Source of the DNA: a virus
Taxonomy: Duplodnaviria; Heunggongvirae; Uroviricota; Caudoviricetes
IMG/VR virus record: IMGVR_UViG_2657244986_000002
DNA length: 18,337 bases
Strand: one strand, 5' to 3'
In this document: positions 1 through 7,716 of the stretch, in pieces
Layout: each line of letters begins with the position of its first letter
How positions within the stretch are numbered: position 1 is the first letter of the stretch
The notes under the pieces: model-generated
The model's input: the letters and a program-made list of their open reading frames with translations, nothing else
Told to the model about the DNA's origin: nothing
Database searches by the model: none
Translations under genes and position numbers: made by a program

Positions 1-16
1 ATATCAGGTGGATAAT

Positions 17-730
17 ATGCCATACATATGTTCTATCATTTTGGTGTTGAACTCGTTTGGTGTCCGAATTGGTAAAGAAGATATTTTGTTTAAAAAAGGA
101 AATGCTGTCCTCATTGAATACAATTTAAAAGATCTTTTTTCGTCAAATACAGATCATCTAATGATCGTAGATGTTGAGGAGAAAACAGTTAATGATTTCT
201 TTAAAAACTACACACTCTCACCTTTTTCTGTAAGAAGGTTTTATCCGTCATACTTGATAGTAGAATGTGAAGATTTTTCATTGTTAAAGAACTTGGTTGC
301 ATGCTTGAATTGTGATAGCAAAACCGTGGATGTAGTTAGAAATCAAATATCACTTGCATGTCTTGCTGTCTTATCTTCAGAGAAAATAGTGCAAAGTTTT
401 TTGTTCGGAAGTCTTAATAGCTTAGGTTGTAAAGTTAAGGCTATTATTCACTCGGATATCTCAGCGTCATGGAGACTTTGTGATATATCTTCAAGATTAT
501 ATATGAGCGAGAGTTTGTTAAAAAGAAAATTAAAAGACGAAGGATTATCGTTTAGTAAATTAATTCTTGAAGAACGAATGATGATGGCGCAAAGATTATT
601 GATCTACAGTAACCATACTGTCGGCAAGGTGGCGGGAATATGCGGGTATGACAATGCATCATATTTTGTAAGTGTTTTTAGAAGATATTTTGGTGTGCCT
701 CCGCACCAATATTTATCAAGATTTTCTTAG
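17..730 (+). CDS. AraC/XylS-family transcriptional regulator (AppY/YdeO/GadX-like), phage cargo gene
   Basis: C-terminal AraC-type HTH signature in the translation (...GICGYDNASYFVSVFRRYFGVPPHQYLSRFS); N-terminus and C-terminal half resemble my recollection of AppY-type regulators. Gene is visibly AT-rich compared with the structural genes. ATG at 17 is preceded by GGTGGA; an in-frame GTG at 8 is an alternative start. Terminator-like hairpin follows. Confidence 0.8.
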   Translation: MPYICSIILVLNSFGVRIGKEDILFKKGNAVLIEYNLKDLFSSNTDHLMIVDVEEKTVNDFFKNYTLSPFSVRRFYPSYLIVECEDFSLLKNLVACLNCDSKTVDVVRNQISLACLAVLSSEKIVQSFLFGSLNSLGCKVKAIIHSDISASWRLCDISSRLYMSESLLKRKLKDEGLSFSKLILEERMMMAQRLLIYSNHTVGKVAGICGYDNASYFVSVFRRYFGVPPHQYLSRFS

Positions 731-798: not shown

Positions 799-830
799 AC
801 GCCAGAATAATTGCTGGCGTTTTTCTTTTT
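799..830 (+). terminator. Rho-independent terminator candidate after the AraC-family gene
   Basis: Inverted repeat ACGCCAG ... CTGGCGT (7-bp stem, about 8-nt loop) followed by TTTTTCTTTTT. Confidence 0.6.
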
Positions 831-920
831 GAATAGATGTTCGGGCCTTACGCTAATGTAACTTCTTTCCTTCTTCGAACCAAACCGTGTACACCATCCG
901 TTATCTGCGGAGGTGAGGCT

Positions 921-1136
921 ATGAAATCCATGGATAAGTTAACAACGGGCATCGCCTACAGCACCTCTGCAGGCAGTGCTGGCTACTGGTTTTTACAGTT
1001 GCTCGATAAAGTCACACCCTCACAGTGGGCGGCAATAGGTGTATTGGGTAGTCTGGTATTTGGCATGCTGACGTATCTGACAAACCTTTATTTCAAGATT
1101 AAAGAAGACAGGCGTAAGGCTGCGCGGGGAGAGTAA
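921..1136 (+). CDS. Class II holin, phage 21 S-type pinholin with dual start (Met1-Lys-Ser-Met4)
   Basis: Translation [71 protein letters not shown] closely matches the phage 21 pinholin as I remember it: 71 aa, two TM segments, charged C-terminus. GAGGTGAGG lies just upstream of the ATG. The ORF-track 837 start is an unsupported N-terminal extension. Confidence 0.9.
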
Positions 1137-1140
1137 TTCA

Positions 1141-1761
1141 ATGACTCAAAACTATGAACTGGTTGTGAAAGGAGCCCGCAATTACGAGGATAAAGTTGCG
1201 GTAACTGTAGCATTACAGGACAAAGAACGCTTTGACGGTGAAATTTTTGACATGGTCATCACCATGGACTGTGTTGAAGGTGCCGCGCTGGAGTTTTATG
1301 AGGCAGCAGCCAGAATGAGCGCCAGGCAGGTCTTCCTGGGAGTGTCAGAAAAATTGTCAGAAAAAGTTGAGTCTTATCTGCAGCATCAGTACTCCATTAA
1401 GATTGAAAATCCTGCCAATAAACACGATCGTCCTCATCTTGCGGGTTATGGTAGTGCAGTTAAAACCAGCACCGGGCGCGCAGAGCAGGAAAAAAACGCC
1501 GTGGATGACATAAGTCGTGCGGTGGTTACTGTGGAGTTTCCGGGGCACGTGGCGTCAAGAGTGAAAGTTGGGAATGGTGGTGCTCCTGTGCTGACGAAAA
1601 TAATCGGCAGCAAGGTCAGTGTCTGGCTTGATGATGAAGAAGTGTTGTCGCTTATGTACAAAGAAGATTACGACCCGGTAATAACAACTTTCAGTGATCA
1701 CGAAGCAAGGGCAAGAGAGTACGCTTTATCGGTATTTGCAGCGATGCGAGCCGGGAATTAG
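1141..1761 (+). CDS. Hypothetical phage protein between holin and endolysin (possibly YdfR/DUF1327-related)
   Basis: 206-aa ORF starting 4 nt after the holin stop, same strand, no TM segment evident. The N-terminal ~100 aa resembles what I recall of small proteins found between holin and lysozyme genes in cryptic E. coli prophages; the family assignment is tentative. Confidence 0.6.
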   Translation: MTQNYELVVKGARNYEDKVAVTVALQDKERFDGEIFDMVITMDCVEGAALEFYEAAARMSARQVFLGVSEKLSEKVESYLQHQYSIKIENPANKHDRPHLAGYGSAVKTSTGRAEQEKNAVDDISRAVVTVEFPGHVASRVKVGNGGAPVLTKIIGSKVSVWLDDEEVLSLMYKEDYDPVITTFSDHEARAREYALSVFAAMRAGN

Positions 1762-1814
1762 CGACAACACCGTCACGAAAATGAGAAAGTACCTGCCACT
1801 CCTTATAAATATCT

Positions 1815-2348
1815 ATGAGCGCAAAAATCAAATACGGTCTGTCAGCTGCCGTTCTGGCGCTGATTGCTGCAGGCGCATCTGCTCCTCAGATACTTGACCA
1901 GTTTCTGGATGAAAAAGAAGGTAATCACACAACGGCATACCGTGATGGTTCTGGCATATGGACCATCTGTCGTGGTGCCACAATGGTGGATGGTAAGCCC
2001 GTCATACCGAGAATGAAGCTGTCGAAGGAAAAATGCGACCAGGTTAACGCTATTGAACGTGATAAGGCGCTGACATGGGTGGAGCGCAATATTAAAGTAC
2101 CACTGACTGAACCACAGAAAGCGGGTATCGCCTCATTTTGTCCCTATAACATTGGCCCAGGTAAGTGTTTTCCGTCGACATTTTATAAGCGGCTGAATGC
2201 TGGTGATCGAAAAGGCGCCTGCGAGGCGATTCGCTGGTGGATTAAGGATGGTGGCAGAGACTGCCGTATTCGTTCCAATAGCTGCTTCGGGCAAGTTTCG
2301 CGTCGGGACCAAGAAAGTGTGCTGGCGTGCTGGGGGATAGACCAGTGA
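1815..2348 (+). CDS. SAR endolysin (phage lysozyme, T4-lysozyme/R21-like)
   Basis: N-terminal Gly/Ala-rich weakly hydrophobic segment ([18 protein letters not shown]) typical of a signal-arrest-release domain, followed by a lysozyme core with a catalytic E...D...T arrangement ([16 protein letters not shown]); overall resemblance to phage 21 R. An in-frame TAA just upstream fixes the start. Confidence 0.9.
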
Positions 2349-2353
2349 ATAAC

Positions 2354-2866
2354 ATGTTTGCTAATGCTTGGTTGAAAGTTGCCACGGTTTCGGCTCTCCT
2401 CATTGCCTCATTTGTTGCAGGGAGTGTGTGGACGGAACGAGCATGGGAAAAGAAATGGGCGGATCGTAATAGTGAAGAATCCTCTCAGGCTGTGAACGCT
2501 CAGATAGCTGCTCGTATGATTGAACAAGGGCGAGTGATCGCTCGTGATGAGGCTGTTAAAAATGCACAAGAACAGGCTGCAAAAGCGGCTGCGAATGTTG
2601 CTGGCCTGTCTGCCACTGTTAACCAGCTGCGCACCGAAGCAACAAAACTTACCGTCCGCTTGGACGCTGCAAAGCACACCTCAGGTCTTGCCGTTGCCGT
2701 CGGAAGCAAAACAACCGCCACCAACGCCGCGATGCTTGCCGACATGCTCGGAAGTATTGCAGAAGAAGCTAGATACTATGCTGGGCGAGCTGATGAAAGT
2801 TACTTGGCTGGAATGACATGTGAACACATTTACGGCTCAGTGAGGGACTCAAGTAGTGTTAAATAG
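2354..2866 (+). CDS. Rz-like i-spanin (inner-membrane spanin subunit)
   Basis: N-terminal TM segment ([20 protein letters not shown]) followed by a long Ala/Gln/Glu-rich helical region; sits immediately after the endolysin; contains an embedded +1-frame lipoprotein ORF. Start uncertain: GTG 2327, GTG 2345 or ATG 2354. Confidence 0.8.
2595..2816 (+). CDS. Rz1-like o-spanin (outer-membrane lipoprotein) embedded in Rz in the +1 frame
   Basis: Internal ATG of the 2544..2816 ORF gives [12 protein letters not shown] with lipobox L-T-S-C, then a proline-rich mature region ([17 protein letters not shown]); wholly nested inside Rz as in lambda Rz/Rz1. Confidence 0.75.
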
Positions 2867-3054: not shown

Positions 3055-3477
3055 ATGTCAGAAGTAGCTGTTGAACTTGAAGAGGATTCTTGGCCTGATT
3101 TTTTCCCGGTTGGAGTACCGCCGAAATCAGCCGTCCCTGCTGAGGGCGAGTTTTTCCGTTTGGTAAGGTCTAATCCACCAACCCCTGCATGTTTCCTCTC
3201 TACACATGAAGAGTATCCGCAGCGGCACAAAAAGTATCGTGGGGAAGCACTTCAGTGTGTCTATGGAACATCATTCTTTTCAGAATCGCGCGGGGCTACG
3301 GATGCAAAAGCTAAATTTCCTGCAGCTCTTGGTCATCGACTCGTTGCTAGTGGTCAGATCACCCCCGTTTTCGGAGTAATGAAAAAAACATTTGCCGATC
3401 CAGCGCACTACACAATTTGGCTTAAGCGTAATTGTGCTATTCATGAACATTTTCACTGTATAGGAGAAGGCGTATGA
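3055..3477 (+). CDS. Hypothetical protein, gene A of two-gene cargo operon (unknown function)
   Basis: 140-aa ORF from the internal ATG of the 3007..3477 ORF (MSEVAVELEEDSW...); stop overlaps the start of the next gene (ATGA), implying translational coupling. No recognisable domain. C-terminus has C-x7-C with HEHFH between. Confidence 0.6.
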   Translation: MSEVAVELEEDSWPDFFPVGVPPKSAVPAEGEFFRLVRSNPPTPACFLSTHEEYPQRHKKYRGEALQCVYGTSFFSESRGATDAKAKFPAALGHRLVASGQITPVFGVMKKTFADPAHYTIWLKRNCAIHEHFHCIGEGV

Positions 3478-4766
3478 GTAACGTTTTTCTACCTAATACA
3501 ATGATGGGCACTCTATGTTACAAAAGAGTTTATGAGTTCTTCGAAGAGCCTCGCTTCTTTTCAGTTGAAAATGAAGTTAGTACACTTTTTATCGTTTACT
3601 GGATTGGTGAGGATGATGAATGTGATAGTTGGTTTATCATACCAATTTCTCCAGGGCGATTAGAGTTGATTGAAAGAAAAAGAATATGTATCCGTGATGC
3701 TTTGATTAATCAGGAGCAAAACTTTTTCTATGAAGCCCATATACCATACGATCGTACAGGCAAAGTGACTTGGCTGAGTAAAAACTTGGTTGATATATTT
3801 GAAATACCTTTGCCTGTTTCTGAACTATATATAAGTTCGGTAGTTCCAGTAATGCCAAATGGTAAACTGGGCGAGGCTATTACTTACTCAACTCATGAGA
3901 TCCATTTAGAAAAAAGCTCAAAGAAAAGTGCAAAAAATTTGGTTTTAAGTCATGTGTCAAACGTATGCGACAGATTCAGCGATCTTTATGACAGAATGCT
4001 GGAGATGGCAAAGTGCAAAGATAAATTACGTCCTGTCGATGCGCGGCCTGGTTCCTTTATCATTTCTTTTAAAGCTGAGAAATTACATTCCTTTGAAGAC
4101 ACTTTTAAAGAATTAAGCAGGCTGATAGAACTTAGAGCTGATATTATTCCTTTTGTTTTCGAAAAGGGTATTGATGTTCCAGCTTTGACAGATCTCTTAC
4201 AATCCATAGTTGAAACCGGAACGAATATGGAACTCAAAAGCAACCAGACAGGTGAATTAGCTTTTGTTATTACAAAAGCTGGTGCTGAGTTCTATTTAAA
4301 AAAATTATCACGTCTTTCTACCTCATTGGTTGGAGGGCATCAAATACCTCAAGCAGATGTCCTCGAGACAGTTTATAAATTAGTGGAAATTGTTTGGAGT
4401 GGCGAACCACTTACTCCTATTAATACTGGTTTGCAAGATAGACATATCTACTATTATAAGCATGCAGCTAAAGTTTTGGGATTACTTGATAGCTTTGGTA
4501 ATGTCACAACGTCTGGTCAACAACTCGTACAAAGTGATGAGATGACTAGACATAAAATTGCAGCGAGAAAATTTGAAGTGAGTCATGTGGGATGGGCTTG
4601 GATAAATTGGGCCAGTGTTGAACATTTATCCCAAATTGATCCTGACAGCGCTTTAGACTTTCTATTGGAGCAATGCCACTCTTTAAGTCGTGATACTATT
4701 GAACGACGTGCTACAACTATTAAACACTGGTGCCGTGAATTGAAAAATTATTATACACCTCTGTAA
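3474..4766 (+). CDS. Hypothetical protein, gene B of two-gene cargo operon (unknown function; candidate defense or accessory protein)
   Basis: 430-aa ORF with strong RBS AGGAGAAGG about 5 nt upstream; markedly AT-rich; no Walker A, TM segment or known catalytic motif visible by eye; followed by a clean terminator. Confidence 0.75.
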   Translation: MSNVFLPNTMMGTLCYKRVYEFFEEPRFFSVENEVSTLFIVYWIGEDDECDSWFIIPISPGRLELIERKRICIRDALINQEQNFFYEAHIPYDRTGKVTWLSKNLVDIFEIPLPVSELYISSVVPVMPNGKLGEAITYSTHEIHLEKSSKKSAKNLVLSHVSNVCDRFSDLYDRMLEMAKCKDKLRPVDARPGSFIISFKAEKLHSFEDTFKELSRLIELRADIIPFVFEKGIDVPALTDLLQSIVETGTNMELKSNQTGELAFVITKAGAEFYLKKLSRLSTSLVGGHQIPQADVLETVYKLVEIVWSGEPLTPINTGLQDRHIYYYKHAAKVLGLLDSFGNVTTSGQQLVQSDEMTRHKIAARKFEVSHVGWAWINWASVEHLSQIDPDSALDFLLEQCHSLSRDTIERRATTIKHWCRELKNYYTPL

Positions 4767-5080: not shown

Positions 5081-5608
5081 ATGTCAAATGTGAGCGGGAT
5101 CGGTGATGCTTATTACTGGAGTGTTTTTAAAATCGCCGAGGCCTTTGGGCTTCACCGGGACACAGTAAAAAAACGGCTCCTCGCGGCCAACACTCCTGTG
5201 GCTGCGACTGTCAGGGGGAACCCCGTTTACGCCCTGCAGCATGTCGGGCCTGCCCTGTTTAGTGTGAAGCATGAGGCAGCAGACTCTGTTCATGATCCAT
5301 CCCGTATGGAGCCGAAAGAGAGAAAGGACTGGTACCAGTCGGAAAATGAAAGGATCAAGTTGGAAAAGGAGCAGCGAAAACTCATCCCCGTTGATGAAGT
5401 AGTCATCGTCTATTCGTCCATGAGAAAGGCTGTCGTCCAGGTTCTGGAGACAATTCCGGATGTTCTTGAACGCGATTGCGCCCTGACTCCTCAGGCCGTT
5501 GGCGTTGTACAGCAGGCCATTGATGACCTGCGATACACTCTTCAGGAAAAATCCTACGAGGCTTGTGCTGCTGAATTAATTCCTGATGAGGAAGGAGAGA
5601 GTCTCTAG
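5081..5608 (+). CDS. Terminase small subunit (lambda Nu1-like)
   Basis: Position directly upstream of the gpA-like large terminase and downstream of the cos-like sequence; N-terminal HTH-like region (YYWSVFKIAEAFGLHRDTVKKRL) and acidic C-terminus, as in Nu1. GGAG precedes the ATG at 5081; the ORF-track start 5069 is an alternative. Confidence 0.75.
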   Translation: MSNVSGIGDAYYWSVFKIAEAFGLHRDTVKKRLLAANTPVAATVRGNPVYALQHVGPALFSVKHEAADSVHDPSRMEPKERKDWYQSENERIKLEKEQRKLIPVDEVVIVYSSMRKAVVQVLETIPDVLERDCALTPQAVGVVQQAIDDLRYTLQEKSYEACAAELIPDEEGESL

Positions 5609-5616
5609 GAGGAATA

Positions 5617-7716
5617 ATGGGTTTTTCATCAGCCCGAAATTTGGGAAGGGACATATCGGCAGGATTTTCCCCACCACGTCGCATGCCGATTTCGGAGGCT
5701 GTTAAAAAATTCATGCGTGTTCCCAAGGGGGCTGGTAACTCGGTGCCATGGGATCCTGAACTGACACCCTACATCATTGAGCCCATGAACTGCCTGGCAT
5801 CGCGTGAATACGATGCGGTGATTTTTGTTGGTCCTGCGCGAACAGGGAAGACCATTGGTCTGATCGATGGATGGATTGTCTATACCATCGTTTGCGATCC
5901 TTCGGACATGCTCGTTGTGCAGATGACCGAAGATAAGGCCCGCGAGCATTCAAAAAAGCGCCTCGACAGAACGTTCAGAAGCAGTGCGGCGGTAAAGAAA
6001 AGAATGAGTCCACGTCGTAATGACAATAATGTCCATGATAAGACGTTCAGGGATGGCTCGTTCCTTAAAATTGGTTGGCCCTCGGTCAACATTATGTCGT
6101 CGTCGGATTACCGGTTTGTCGCCTTAACCGATTACGACCGTTTTCCGGAGAATATCGACAGCGAGGGTGATGGTTTCTCCCTGGCCTCAAAACGTACCAC
6201 CACATTTATGTCCGCCGGGATGACTCTGGTGGAGAGCTCGCCGGGACGTGACATCTGCGACAGCAAATGGCGACGTAAGTCGCCTCATGAAGCGCCACCG
6301 ACGACTGGTATTCTTTCCCTTTACAATCGTGGTGACCGCCGCCGCTGGTACTGGCCATGTCCGCACTGCGGTGAATATTTTCAGCCAGCCATGGATGCCA
6401 TGACCGGCTACCGTAATGAACCGGATCCCTTTAAAGCCAGTGAGGCGGCGTATCTACTTTGCCCGCACTGCAGCGGCATTATCACTGCGGAGAAAAAGCG
6501 TGAGCTCAATAGTGCAGGAGTCTGGTTGCGTGAAGGTCAGGTCATTGATTGTAACGGCAACGTTTCCGGTGAACCGCGCCGCTCCCGTATCGCCAGTTTC
6601 TGGATGGAAGGGCCAGCTGCTGCGTATCAGACCTGGGCGCAACTGGTTTACAAATTACTGACTGCAGAACAGGAGTATGAAGCGACAGGAAGTGAAGAAA
6701 CACTCAGGGCGGTTATCAACACCGACTGGGGATTACCTTATCTTCCCCGCGCCAGCATGGAGCAACGAAAAAGTGAACTGCTTGAGCAGCGGGCAGAGCC
6801 AGTTCCTTCCCGCAGTGTGCCAGATGGCGTTAATTTTCTTGTGGCGACAGTGGATGTGCAGGCGGGACGTCATCGCCGTTTTGTGGTTCAGGTAACGGGC
6901 TATGGCAGCCGTGGCGAACGCTGGATTATTGATCGTTACAACATCACGCAGTCATTGCGCGGTGACAGCGACGGGGAGAGCCAGCGAATTGATCCGGCCA
7001 GCTATCCGGAAGACTGGGATGTCCTGCTGACGGATGTTTTTCATAAAAGCTGGCCGCTGGCCTCCGATCCTTCTCAACAAATGCGACTGATGGCAATGGC
7101 GGTGGACTCCGGCGGTGAAGACGGGGTCACTGATAATGCCTATAAATTCTGGCGTCGTTGCCGTCGTGATGGCCTTGGTAAACGTATTTACCTGTTTAAG
7201 GGCGACAGCATCCGGCGCGCAAAACTGATCACCCGTACATTCCCTGATAACACCGGACGAACGGGCCGACGGGCGCAGGCCGCAGGTGATGTGCCGCTCT
7301 GGCTTCTTCAGACGGATGCACTGAAAGACCGGGTGAATAACGCGTTATGGCGTGACTCGCCAGGTCCCGGCTATGTGCATTTCCCTGACTGGCTGGGGAG
7401 CTGGTTTTACGACGAACTGACGTATGAAGAGCGGAGCAGTGACGGGAAATGGAGTAAGCCGGGTCGCGGTGCCAACGAAGCTTTTGACCTGATGGTGTAT
7501 GCCGAGGCTCTGGTCATTCTGCATGGATACGAAAAGATCCGCTGGCCGGATGCACCGGAGTGGGCGAGCCGGGAAACCTGGCTGGAGTGTGTCCCGGACA
7601 GTACCGAACCGTCATCCTCACCGGAACCGGTATCCACGCCTGTTAAAAAACAAAAACGGAAGAAAACAGTAACTGACGATGTTAACCCCTGGCTGACTTC
7701 CGGAGGATGGTTATGA
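5617..7716 (+). CDS. Terminase large subunit (lambda gpA family)
   Basis: 699 aa; contains a WPCPHCGEYFQ motif matching lambda gpA (ACPHCGEE) and a Walker-A-like GPARTGKT; strong RBS AGGAGG; stop overlaps the next gene. Confidence 0.9.
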   Translation: MGFSSARNLGRDISAGFSPPRRMPISEAVKKFMRVPKGAGNSVPWDPELTPYIIEPMNCLASREYDAVIFVGPARTGKTIGLIDGWIVYTIVCDPSDMLVVQMTEDKAREHSKKRLDRTFRSSAAVKKRMSPRRNDNNVHDKTFRDGSFLKIGWPSVNIMSSSDYRFVALTDYDRFPENIDSEGDGFSLASKRTTTFMSAGMTLVESSPGRDICDSKWRRKSPHEAPPTTGILSLYNRGDRRRWYWPCPHCGEYFQPAMDAMTGYRNEPDPFKASEAAYLLCPHCSGIITAEKKRELNSAGVWLREGQVIDCNGNVSGEPRRSRIASFWMEGPAAAYQTWAQLVYKLLTAEQEYEATGSEETLRAVINTDWGLPYLPRASMEQRKSELLEQRAEPVPSRSVPDGVNFLVATVDVQAGRHRRFVVQVTGYGSRGERWIIDRYNITQSLRGDSDGESQRIDPASYPEDWDVLLTDVFHKSWPLASDPSQQMRLMAMAVDSGGEDGVTDNAYKFWRRCRRDGLGKRIYLFKGDSIRRAKLITRTFPDNTGRTGRRAQAAGDVPLWLLQTDALKDRVNNALWRDSPGPGYVHFPDWLGSWFYDELTYEERSSDGKWSKPGRGANEAFDLMVYAEALVILHGYEKIRWPDAPEWASRETWLECVPDSTEPSSSPEPVSTPVKKQKRKKTVTDDVNPWLTSGGWL

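Follow-up and report, generated by a model that had tools for sequence, protein, structure and literature searches.

A long-form YdfR-family gene with an HK97 gp22-like C-terminal domain between the pinholin and SAR endolysin genes of a Qin-like Escherichia coli prophage

What is the 206-residue protein encoded between the pinholin and the signal-arrest-release (SAR) endolysin of the virus sequence IMGVR_UViG_2657244986_000002, and does its position make it part of the lysis machinery? The sequence (IMG/VR; Duplodnaviria; Heunggongvirae; Uroviricota; Caudoviricetes) was analysed as a single stretch of 18,337 nucleotides, referred to below as the window. The original prediction, made from the sequence alone, described a soluble-looking plus-strand open reading frame (ORF) at 1141-1761 that starts 4 nt past the holin stop, and took it for an unrecognised gene inserted between lysis genes that are normally adjacent. 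The coordinates and the description are correct, and the flanking genes are a pinholin (PF04971) and a SAR endolysin (PF00959, with a SAR-like N-terminus). The ORF does code for a protein, and it belongs to the YdfR/DUF1327 family, which is already known by name, is uncharacterised, and ordinarily occupies this slot. What is new is that the C-terminal half is an HK97 gp22-like domain, that the two-domain architecture recurs, that the K-12 YdfR protein is derived from it, and that the pseudogene label carried by the gene looks like an annotation artefact. As an insertion the gene is not unusual, and there is no sign of a new mechanism of lysis.

Residues 1-93 match positions 1-93 of the 93-position Pfam DUF1327/YdfR model (PF07041) with an E value of 1.5e-45 and 153.8 bits against a cut-off of 25. 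The surmise that the first ~100 residues are related to small proteins of cryptic prophages proved right, as the window protein is 83.5% identical to K-12 YdfR (UniProt P76160) over residues 1-97, which include a lineage-specific linker start, and 80.6% identical over residues 1-72. Full-length homologues share 78-80% identity (243-aa forms) or 47% (328-aa form). By the Nei-Gojobori method, the whole-gene ratio of nonsynonymous to synonymous substitution rates (dN/dS) is 0.48-0.50 against the pair of close homologues of 243 aa and 0.30 against the one of 328 aa, which is divergent. The Pfam score, the identities and the dN/dS values below 1 argue for a real gene and against an artefactual frame. 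The C-terminal half has clearly evolved as protein as well, because the dN/dS over its 80 codons is 0.21-0.28 against four different relatives, at dS values of 0.44-0.77. Direct reading of the sequence revealed no hydrophobic or transmembrane segment and no signal peptide in the 206-aa protein, so that the description as soluble-looking holds.

The assumption of a contiguous cassette into which the gene had been inserted did not survive comparison. The slot is filled in all 13 loci compared (the window and 12 relatives), and DNA matching the N-domain (window 1141-1371) is present in 3647 of 5426 complete E. coli genomes, at up to six copies per genome. The order holin, DUF1327 gene, endolysin was found in every locus opened, including K-12 Qin, prophages of enterotoxigenic and uropathogenic E. 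coli, mEp460, PhiR12_2, Stx2-86 and phiSTEC1575-Stx2k. The junction with the holin is equally regular. In the window, the holin stop TAA (1134-1136) is followed by TTCA and the ATG of the ORF, with GGAG placed 9-10 nt upstream in the terminal holin codons; the same layout, comprising a TAA or TAG stop, 4 nt and an ATG with GGAG or GAGAG upstream, is kept at all 13 loci, even in the divergent 'MNKKYELVVKG' allele group. At the far end, a gap of 53 nt between the ORF and the endolysin start lacks an obvious Shine-Dalgarno sequence. In phiSTEC1575-Stx2k (locus L013, 1281-3222), the S21-type holin and the DUF1327 gene are followed by a different cassette, in which two holin-family genes and an M15 peptidase take the place of a SAR endolysin, so that holin and YdfR move together as one unit. 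A paper on the regions flanking stx in Shiga toxin (Stx) phages does not mention the gene, and a literature search for 'DUF1327' turned up the name in a single paper, where it is a list entry.

The protein is built of two modules that fold separately, with a disordered linker of ~45 residues between them; the first ~20 residues of the linker region are shared by K-12 YdfR. The full-length AlphaFold2 model (predicted local distance difference test score, pLDDT, of 56) places the two domains apart, connected by a low-pLDDT segment, and predicts three β-strands followed by a helix for the N-terminal core. The C-terminal domain, hereafter module B, was modelled alone from 14 sequences with a pLDDT of 84 and a predicted template modelling score of 0.71, and is predicted to comprise a short helix, a β-meander and a 22-residue C-terminal helix. 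Its description as unrecognised stands for Pfam, NCBIfam and PADLOC, none of which gave a match, and falls for PHROGs, where residues 129-199 match phrog_11851 (E 6.3e-8), the same family that is matched by HK97 Gp22 (E 3.7e-5). A Foldseek search of module B against BFVD, a database of predicted viral structures, returned two significant matches, an uncharacterised siphovirus protein (E 2.6e-5) and HK97 Gp22 (E 3.3e-4, probability 1.00, template modelling scores 0.68/0.51, 29% identity). Likewise, hhalign aligned HK97 Gp22 with the module B alignment at 97.3% probability (E 2e-11, 32% identity over 73 columns), and the two share the motif Y-x-E-D-[YF]-[DN]-P...EARA[KR]EYA. Module B is thus homologous to the HK97 gp22 'moron product' (NP_037715.1), which stands alone as a protein of 120 aa, is encoded between tail genes I and J, and has neither a YdfR domain nor a link to a holin. 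To our knowledge, no function has been published for gp22 of HK97, and a literature search for one found no paper.

Searches for homologues of solved structure gave no significant match. A family-profile hmmsearch against Protein Data Bank sequences yielded only noise, and Foldseek with the full model found nothing at E ≤ 1e-3; the top two matches, themselves non-significant, are proteins with tandem double-stranded RNA-binding domains (dsRBDs). The predicted fold of module B may weakly resemble the α-β-β-β-α arrangement of dsRBDs, which would be a likeness of fold only; neither of the canonical motifs, GPxH and KKxAK, is evident. A separate candidate, that module B is a diverged internal duplicate of the DUF1327 core, was considered but is not claimed: MAFFT placed standalone domain B proteins onto the N-domain, and the full-length model predicts three strands and then a helix in both domains, but the profile-profile probability was 3%, rising to 23.5% (E 8.6e-4) when divergent members were added, which is not significant.

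The C-terminal extension is not unique to the window. Both domains occur in the same order in the 243-aa and 328-aa E. coli relatives (P0002, P0003 and P0014), which lie in the same slot, and when 5.8 billion clusters were searched with a word index, eight E. coli module B proteins of 76-144 aa, standalone or fragmentary, were recovered. DNA of the C-terminal half is nevertheless present in just 21 of the 5426 E. coli genomes, and an exhaustive phmmer search of 1.84 billion cluster representatives gave 7 matches in all, so module B is very narrowly distributed. In strain TUM1881 a standalone module B gene lies upstream of an unrelated cassette of two holins and an M15 endolysin; the 96-aa ORF that precedes it was checked as a possible split-off YdfR domain and is unrelated. 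A scan of one genome per species returned a single locus (L019, JAEWTL010000010.1, 'MAG: Bacillota bacterium OH_SDB_141'); it matches the window at 100% identity and is almost certainly an E. coli prophage contig that was binned into this MAG by mistake. A more distant instance is P0132, a 267-aa protein from non-E. coli prophages that has no megablast match in the 5426 genomes. Module B forms its last 77 residues (phrog_11851, E 1.3e-12), residues 1-72 match the YdfR family phrog_2735 (E 9e-7; Pfam DUF1327 E 5e-4, below threshold), and a coiled-coil-like segment bridges the two parts; the gene is placed after Q and before the holin, in the late region, and is followed by a small antisense ORF. 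From these sequences, the two-domain architecture is no accident of one strain.

Across an alignment of 16-47 family members, the head (residues 1 to ~77) is constant, with invariant residues Y5, E6, V9, K10, G11, K18, V21, T22, A24, L25, D43, E46, G47, A48, L50, E51, F52, Y53, E54, A55, A57 and Q63. After the head, the proteins continue in very unlike ways to total lengths of 103, 114, 116, 129, 161, 174, 176, 183, 206, 211, 243, 268, 296 and 328 aa, and PHROGs divides them into at least five families that have the head in common. Some of the tails resemble out-of-frame junk, and others are recurrent modules in several combinations; the tails 'ERQRHHENGVAFVAK...' and 'CSEARYTIKINSSDNS' were found both behind the YdfR head and behind standalone domain B proteins. 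Such tail exchange is classic lambdoid mosaicism. A length of 206 aa with a second folded domain departs from the single-domain archetype of ~100-120 aa (the Pfam description and K-12), but long forms are common in the DUF1327 family, so small size is a feature of the archetype rather than of the family.

The window ORF is a reduced derivative of the 243-aa form. The latter carries an extra C-terminal tail of 37 aa, and the 328-aa form a further module of ~120 aa, whereas the window protein has no such tail. Alignment by blastn with the locus of a 243-aa gene (L004) pairs window 800-1783 with 5338-6318 and window 1800-2342 with 6745-7287; ~426 nt are therefore missing from the window, corresponding to the last ~30 codons, an antisense ORF and a spacer. 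If the TAG is read through, the frame ends at a TGA (1816-1818) that overlaps the endolysin ATG, and K-12 ydfR ends identically. K-12 YdfR shares with the window ORF the slot, the junction, the prophage lineage and the site in the chromosome (rspB...ydfJ), and represents this gene with an additional in-frame deletion: its 103 aa (L021, 2501-2812) correspond exactly to the 225-codon read-through frame minus window 1439-1804 (366 nt, 122 codons), a stretch that comprises most of the linker, all of domain B and the 15 codons past the TAG. The reference YdfR is thus a deletion stump of a two-domain protein, with the window as an intermediate, and experiments on K-12 YdfR study a truncated form.

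The 243-aa loci also have an antisense ORF over the 3' end of the gene, in contrast to the window, where no trace of it (a 93-aa 'reverse moron', phrog_2572) was found. Long YdfR or gp22-like genes are repeatedly accompanied by a small antisense ORF that overlaps or abuts their 3' end (L004 6352-6633, L002 2048-2320, L012 1958-2218 and L016 6828-7052, all on the minus strand). In the HK97 record, Gp23, a 'reverse moron product', is encoded antisense and overlaps the 3' end of gp22 (L020 14715-14975, minus strand). The E. coli antisense ORF of ~90 aa mirrors the layout of this gp22/gp23 pair, yet the proteins are not homologous: comparison of HK97 gp23 with the ORF found no relationship.

Because the slot lies directly behind the pinholin gene, the junction is invariant and the ribosome-binding site lies inside the holin gene, co-transcription with the lysis genes is predicted, and the protein should be made from the Q-dependent late transcript along with the lysis proteins. 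A moron, as Juhala et al. reportedly used the term in 2000, is an insert that is autonomous and carries a promoter and a terminator of its own. The ORF has neither: a promoter scan found no sigma-70-like site between the holin and the ORF, the nearest on the plus strand being at 713-740, before the hairpin at 799-820, and that hairpin, upstream of the holin, is the sole plus-strand terminator-like element in the scan, which found no terminator after the ORF. The gp22-like domain here belongs to the late operon. The idea of a cargo gene co-expressed with lysis survives; strand and position suit co-expression.

All the experimental information found on activity comes from a 2026 paper in RNA Biology on the K-12 protein (PMC13232886). 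In a two-hybrid screen with RNase G as bait, codons 1-72 of YdfR were recovered three times; residues 1-72 and full-length YdfR interact with RNase E(1-597) in the bacterial two-hybrid assay, and Strep-YdfR co-purified RNase E(1-598) together with much DNase-resistant nucleic acid (PMC13232886). Overexpression caused no growth defect and few transcriptome changes (PMC13232886). The interacting segment coincides exactly with the conserved head, which in the window has the 80.6% identity given above, and an accessory protein that binds RNase E or RNA was therefore adopted as the explanation. With moderate confidence, the gene is regarded as encoding a dispensable, late-expressed cytoplasmic accessory protein (a moron fusion) that binds RNase E and/or RNA, an activity that we infer, and that is neither a lysis component nor a lysis timer. 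Its most likely activity would be host-factor binding late in induction. The YdfR core may bind RNA, the N-terminal, catalytic half of RNase E, or both, as K-12 YdfR(1-72) is reported to do, and the gp22-like domain, with its perhaps weakly dsRBD-like predicted fold, might add a second binding surface; the net outcome would be altered RNA turnover rather than lysis of membrane or wall.

Several observations weigh against this explanation. The RNase E lead consists of overexpression and two-hybrid data on the K-12 orthologue, the transcriptome effect was limited, and a contaminating RNA binder could not be excluded (PMC13232886). Pfam dsrm gave no match in the 206-aa protein at E ≤ 0.1, which bears on the dsRBD part. 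The YdfR core always accompanies an S21-type holin, also where the downstream cassette has changed, and this would fit a holin-related role too. The remaining points concern the state of this copy. Codon 44 (window 1270-1272) encodes Cys, where at least 90% of the family have Arg in a conserved D-R-V-E-G motif; N-domain alleles in general show dN/dS of 0.25-0.6, and pairs with the window allele 0.4-1.06; compared with the 243-aa form, there is a premature TAG and the tail is lost; and the gene resides in a prophage without head or tail genes. Finally, RefSeq, through the Prokaryotic Genome Annotation Pipeline (PGAP), annotates 1141-1437 alone, as a pseudogene 'DUF1327 ... incomplete; missing C-terminus'.

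Taken together, these features of the copy describe a possible decaying remnant, in effect the view of RefSeq, in which an open but functionless relic of the 243-aa gene would persist by vertical inheritance of a defective prophage. The stop-codon gap, R44C at a nearly invariant site, the raised dN/dS (0.84-1.06 for the window N-domain allele against its closest alleles), the N-domain exchange described below and the loss of the morphogenesis genes keep this alternative alive. The change of GAG to TAG and the ~426-nt deletion relative to L004 are in line with it, as are the tolerated loss of a further 122 codons in K-12 and the untranslated gap of 53 nt without an obvious Shine-Dalgarno sequence. 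We nonetheless think it unlikely. In the models, both folded domains are intact and stop at natural domain boundaries. The exact 206-aa protein is recorded on 75 contigs, and its 90% cluster has 18 distinct members, nearly all of 206 aa, in which the last 135 residues hardly vary and the reading frame is intact throughout; some of these members retain Arg at position 44. The N-domain occurs in this cluster in several alleles, one of which is the K-12 allele at all 14 differing positions, and this points to exchange by recombination among co-resident prophages. The PGAP feature ends at the very point where the short form ceases to be similar (window 1437), and the same label has been put on other intact long forms (L010 2156-2380 and L011 2212-2508). 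The label looks like an annotation artefact of comparison with short YdfR rather than evidence of inactivation; full-length proteins are therefore missing from RefSeq protein sets.

The suggestion of a lysis-timing modulator fared less well than that of co-expressed cargo: nothing was found that points there, and relatives of the C-terminal half lie outside lysis cassettes, among tail genes in HK97 and upstream of holins of other families. As a mechanism, a protein co-translated with the pinholin would bind either the SAR endolysin or the S21 cytoplasmic tail and so tune the time of triggering, in the manner of the soluble antiholin-type cofactors T4 RIII and P1 LydB. The strict link of the YdfR core to PF04971 holins, the coupling junction invariant at all 13 loci, the persistence of the holin-YdfR pair when the endolysin type downstream changes and the overlap of the K-12 ydfR stop with the endolysin start are all compatible with such a regulator. 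So is the outcome of an envelope-integrity screen in which ydfR was flagged (Paradis-Bleau et al. 2014, cited in PMC13232886). On the other hand, no match to a known holin regulator or antiholin was found in Pfam, PHROG annotations or NCBIfam, the protein lacks a hydrophobic segment, and the dual start (MKSM) of S21 already supplies an antiholin of its own. Domain B relatives are not tied to lysis genes, HK97 gp22 lying between tail genes, and the part after residue 77 is freely swapped, truncated and deleted among prophages, which would be unexpected in a tuned timer. With the lack of a growth defect on overexpression (PMC13232886), a regulator of this kind appears rather improbable.

The genomic setting is that of a cryptic prophage (Table 1). 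Over 800-2900, the window matches the E. coli LR-45 chromosome (NZ_AP027532.1) at 100% identity; among the 5426 complete E. coli genomes searched, this is the only one with the entire arrangement. According to the RefSeq annotation of LR-45, the host element is a Qin-like defective lambdoid prophage located at rspB...ydfJ, with the gene order integrase, dicB, Q antiterminator, cargo, essD holin, 206-aa ORF, rrrQ lysozyme, DUF2514 Rz-like gene and two more cargo genes; no head or tail genes are left in this annotation, a tail-fibre fragment alone persisting. The pinholin bears the MKSM dual-start motif, and direct reading of the endolysin shows a Gly/Ala-rich, SAR-like N-terminus and the E35/D44/T50 spacing. 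The region between Q and the holin (window 8-730, plus strand, and upstream L001 14135-15811) is non-phage cargo, comprising the lipocalin gene blc, a DUF523/DUF1722 gene and an AraC-type regulator; the same set lies 5' of the 243-aa form in L004. The hairpin between this cargo and the holin could be the terminator of the cargo transcript or a site for read-through by Q-modified polymerase. Next after the Rz-like gene, window 3055-3477 and 3474-4766 (plus strand) weakly match PD-T4-10_A (E 8e-6) and PD-T4-10_B (E 2.8e-4) in PADLOC; the pair encodes a hypothetical protein of 140 aa and a DUF6575 protein of 430 aa that matches DUF7226 weakly, and is probably defence cargo in a post-lysis moron slot.

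Table 1 Coordinates of the 206-aa ORF, its parts and the neighbouring features in the window.
Feature	Position	Strand	Evidence or details
Terminator-like hairpin	799-820	+	7-bp stem (5 GC pairs) then T-run; between AraC-type cargo gene and holin
Class II (phage 21 S-type) pinholin, 71 aa	921..1136	+	PF04971 'Bacteriophage P21 holin S', E 2.6e-34; RefSeq essD
Conserved junction	1126..1140	+	GGGGAGAG (Shine-Dalgarno within final holin codons), TAA, 4-nt spacer, ATG
Long-form YdfR-family protein, 206 aa	1141..1761	+	ATG 1141, TAG 1759-1761
N-terminal DUF1327/YdfR core, residues 1-77	1141..1371	+	Pfam match (extends to residue 93), alignments, model
Linker, residues 78-126, predicted disordered	1372..1518	+	pLDDT <50 for residues 70-124; alignment with K-12
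Module B, residues 127-206, HK97 gp22-like moron domain	1519..1758	+	phrog_11851, model, Foldseek, hhalign, dN/dS
TAG stop	1759..1761	+	Corresponding codon GAG (Glu) in 243-aa relatives
~426-nt deletion junction relative to 243-aa form	1784..1799	+	blastn against L004
SAR endolysin, R21-type lysozyme, 177 aa	1815..2348	+	PF00959, E 5.3e-24; RefSeq rrrQ
Rz-like spanin component, DUF2514	2354..2866	+	PF10721, E 6e-45; RefSeq coordinates

One further alternative is that the ORF is a conflict gene, a moron for superinfection exclusion, defence or anti-defence in which the N-domain would serve as a docking or expression module and the swappable C-terminal parts as effectors or specificity determinants. 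The extreme C-terminal modularity upon a constant N-domain (103-328 aa), the moron status of HK97 gp22, the paired antisense 'reverse moron' in HK97 and, non-homologously, in E. coli prophages, and the PD-T4-10-like pair in the adjacent post-Rz slot would all suit this explanation. However, PADLOC returned 0 families at E ≤ 0.01 for the ORF, and Pfam no toxin, nuclease or membrane domain. Late-operon timing would be wrong for exclusion by a lysogen unless an internal promoter existed, and no sigma-70-like site lies directly upstream; in addition, many of the variant tails resemble out-of-frame junk rather than domains. A conflict function is accordingly considered doubtful, and the RNase E/RNA-binding accessory protein is preferred.

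Most lambdoid prophages of E. coli, Stx-converting phages among them, have a YdfR-type gene within the lysis cassette, and the family can be described as a constant head with swappable modules, one of which is the HK97 gp22 moron domain. Because the K-12 protein on which experiments were done is a deletion stump, work on RNase E binding or on lysis calls for the two-domain forms. A bolder extension of the RNase E/RNA-binding explanation, to which we assign a low probability, is that YdfR proteins are modular late proteins whose constant head attaches to RNA or to the catalytic half of RNase E, and whose swappable C-terminal modules, here the gp22-like and possibly dsRBD-like domain, choose the RNAs or partners that are delivered to the enzyme or withheld from it. 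If so, pinholin-type lambdoid and Stx phages would gain an unrecognised control over RNA decay at lysis, and the K-12 reference protein would be a mere stump of an ancestral two-domain protein.

Phage modulators of RNase E include T7 gp0.7, phiKZ Dip and T4 Srd, which act early; Dip binds, and gp0.7 phosphorylates, the scaffold region of the enzyme. If the RNase E lead holds, YdfR would follow the same logic, that of a small phage protein that binds the central endoribonuclease of the host and reshapes RNA decay during infection, with no sequence similarity and no detected fold similarity between YdfR and these proteins. The point of contact would also differ: the reported contact of YdfR is with the catalytic N-terminal half of RNase E (PMC13232886), unlike the scaffold-region targets of Dip and gp0.7.

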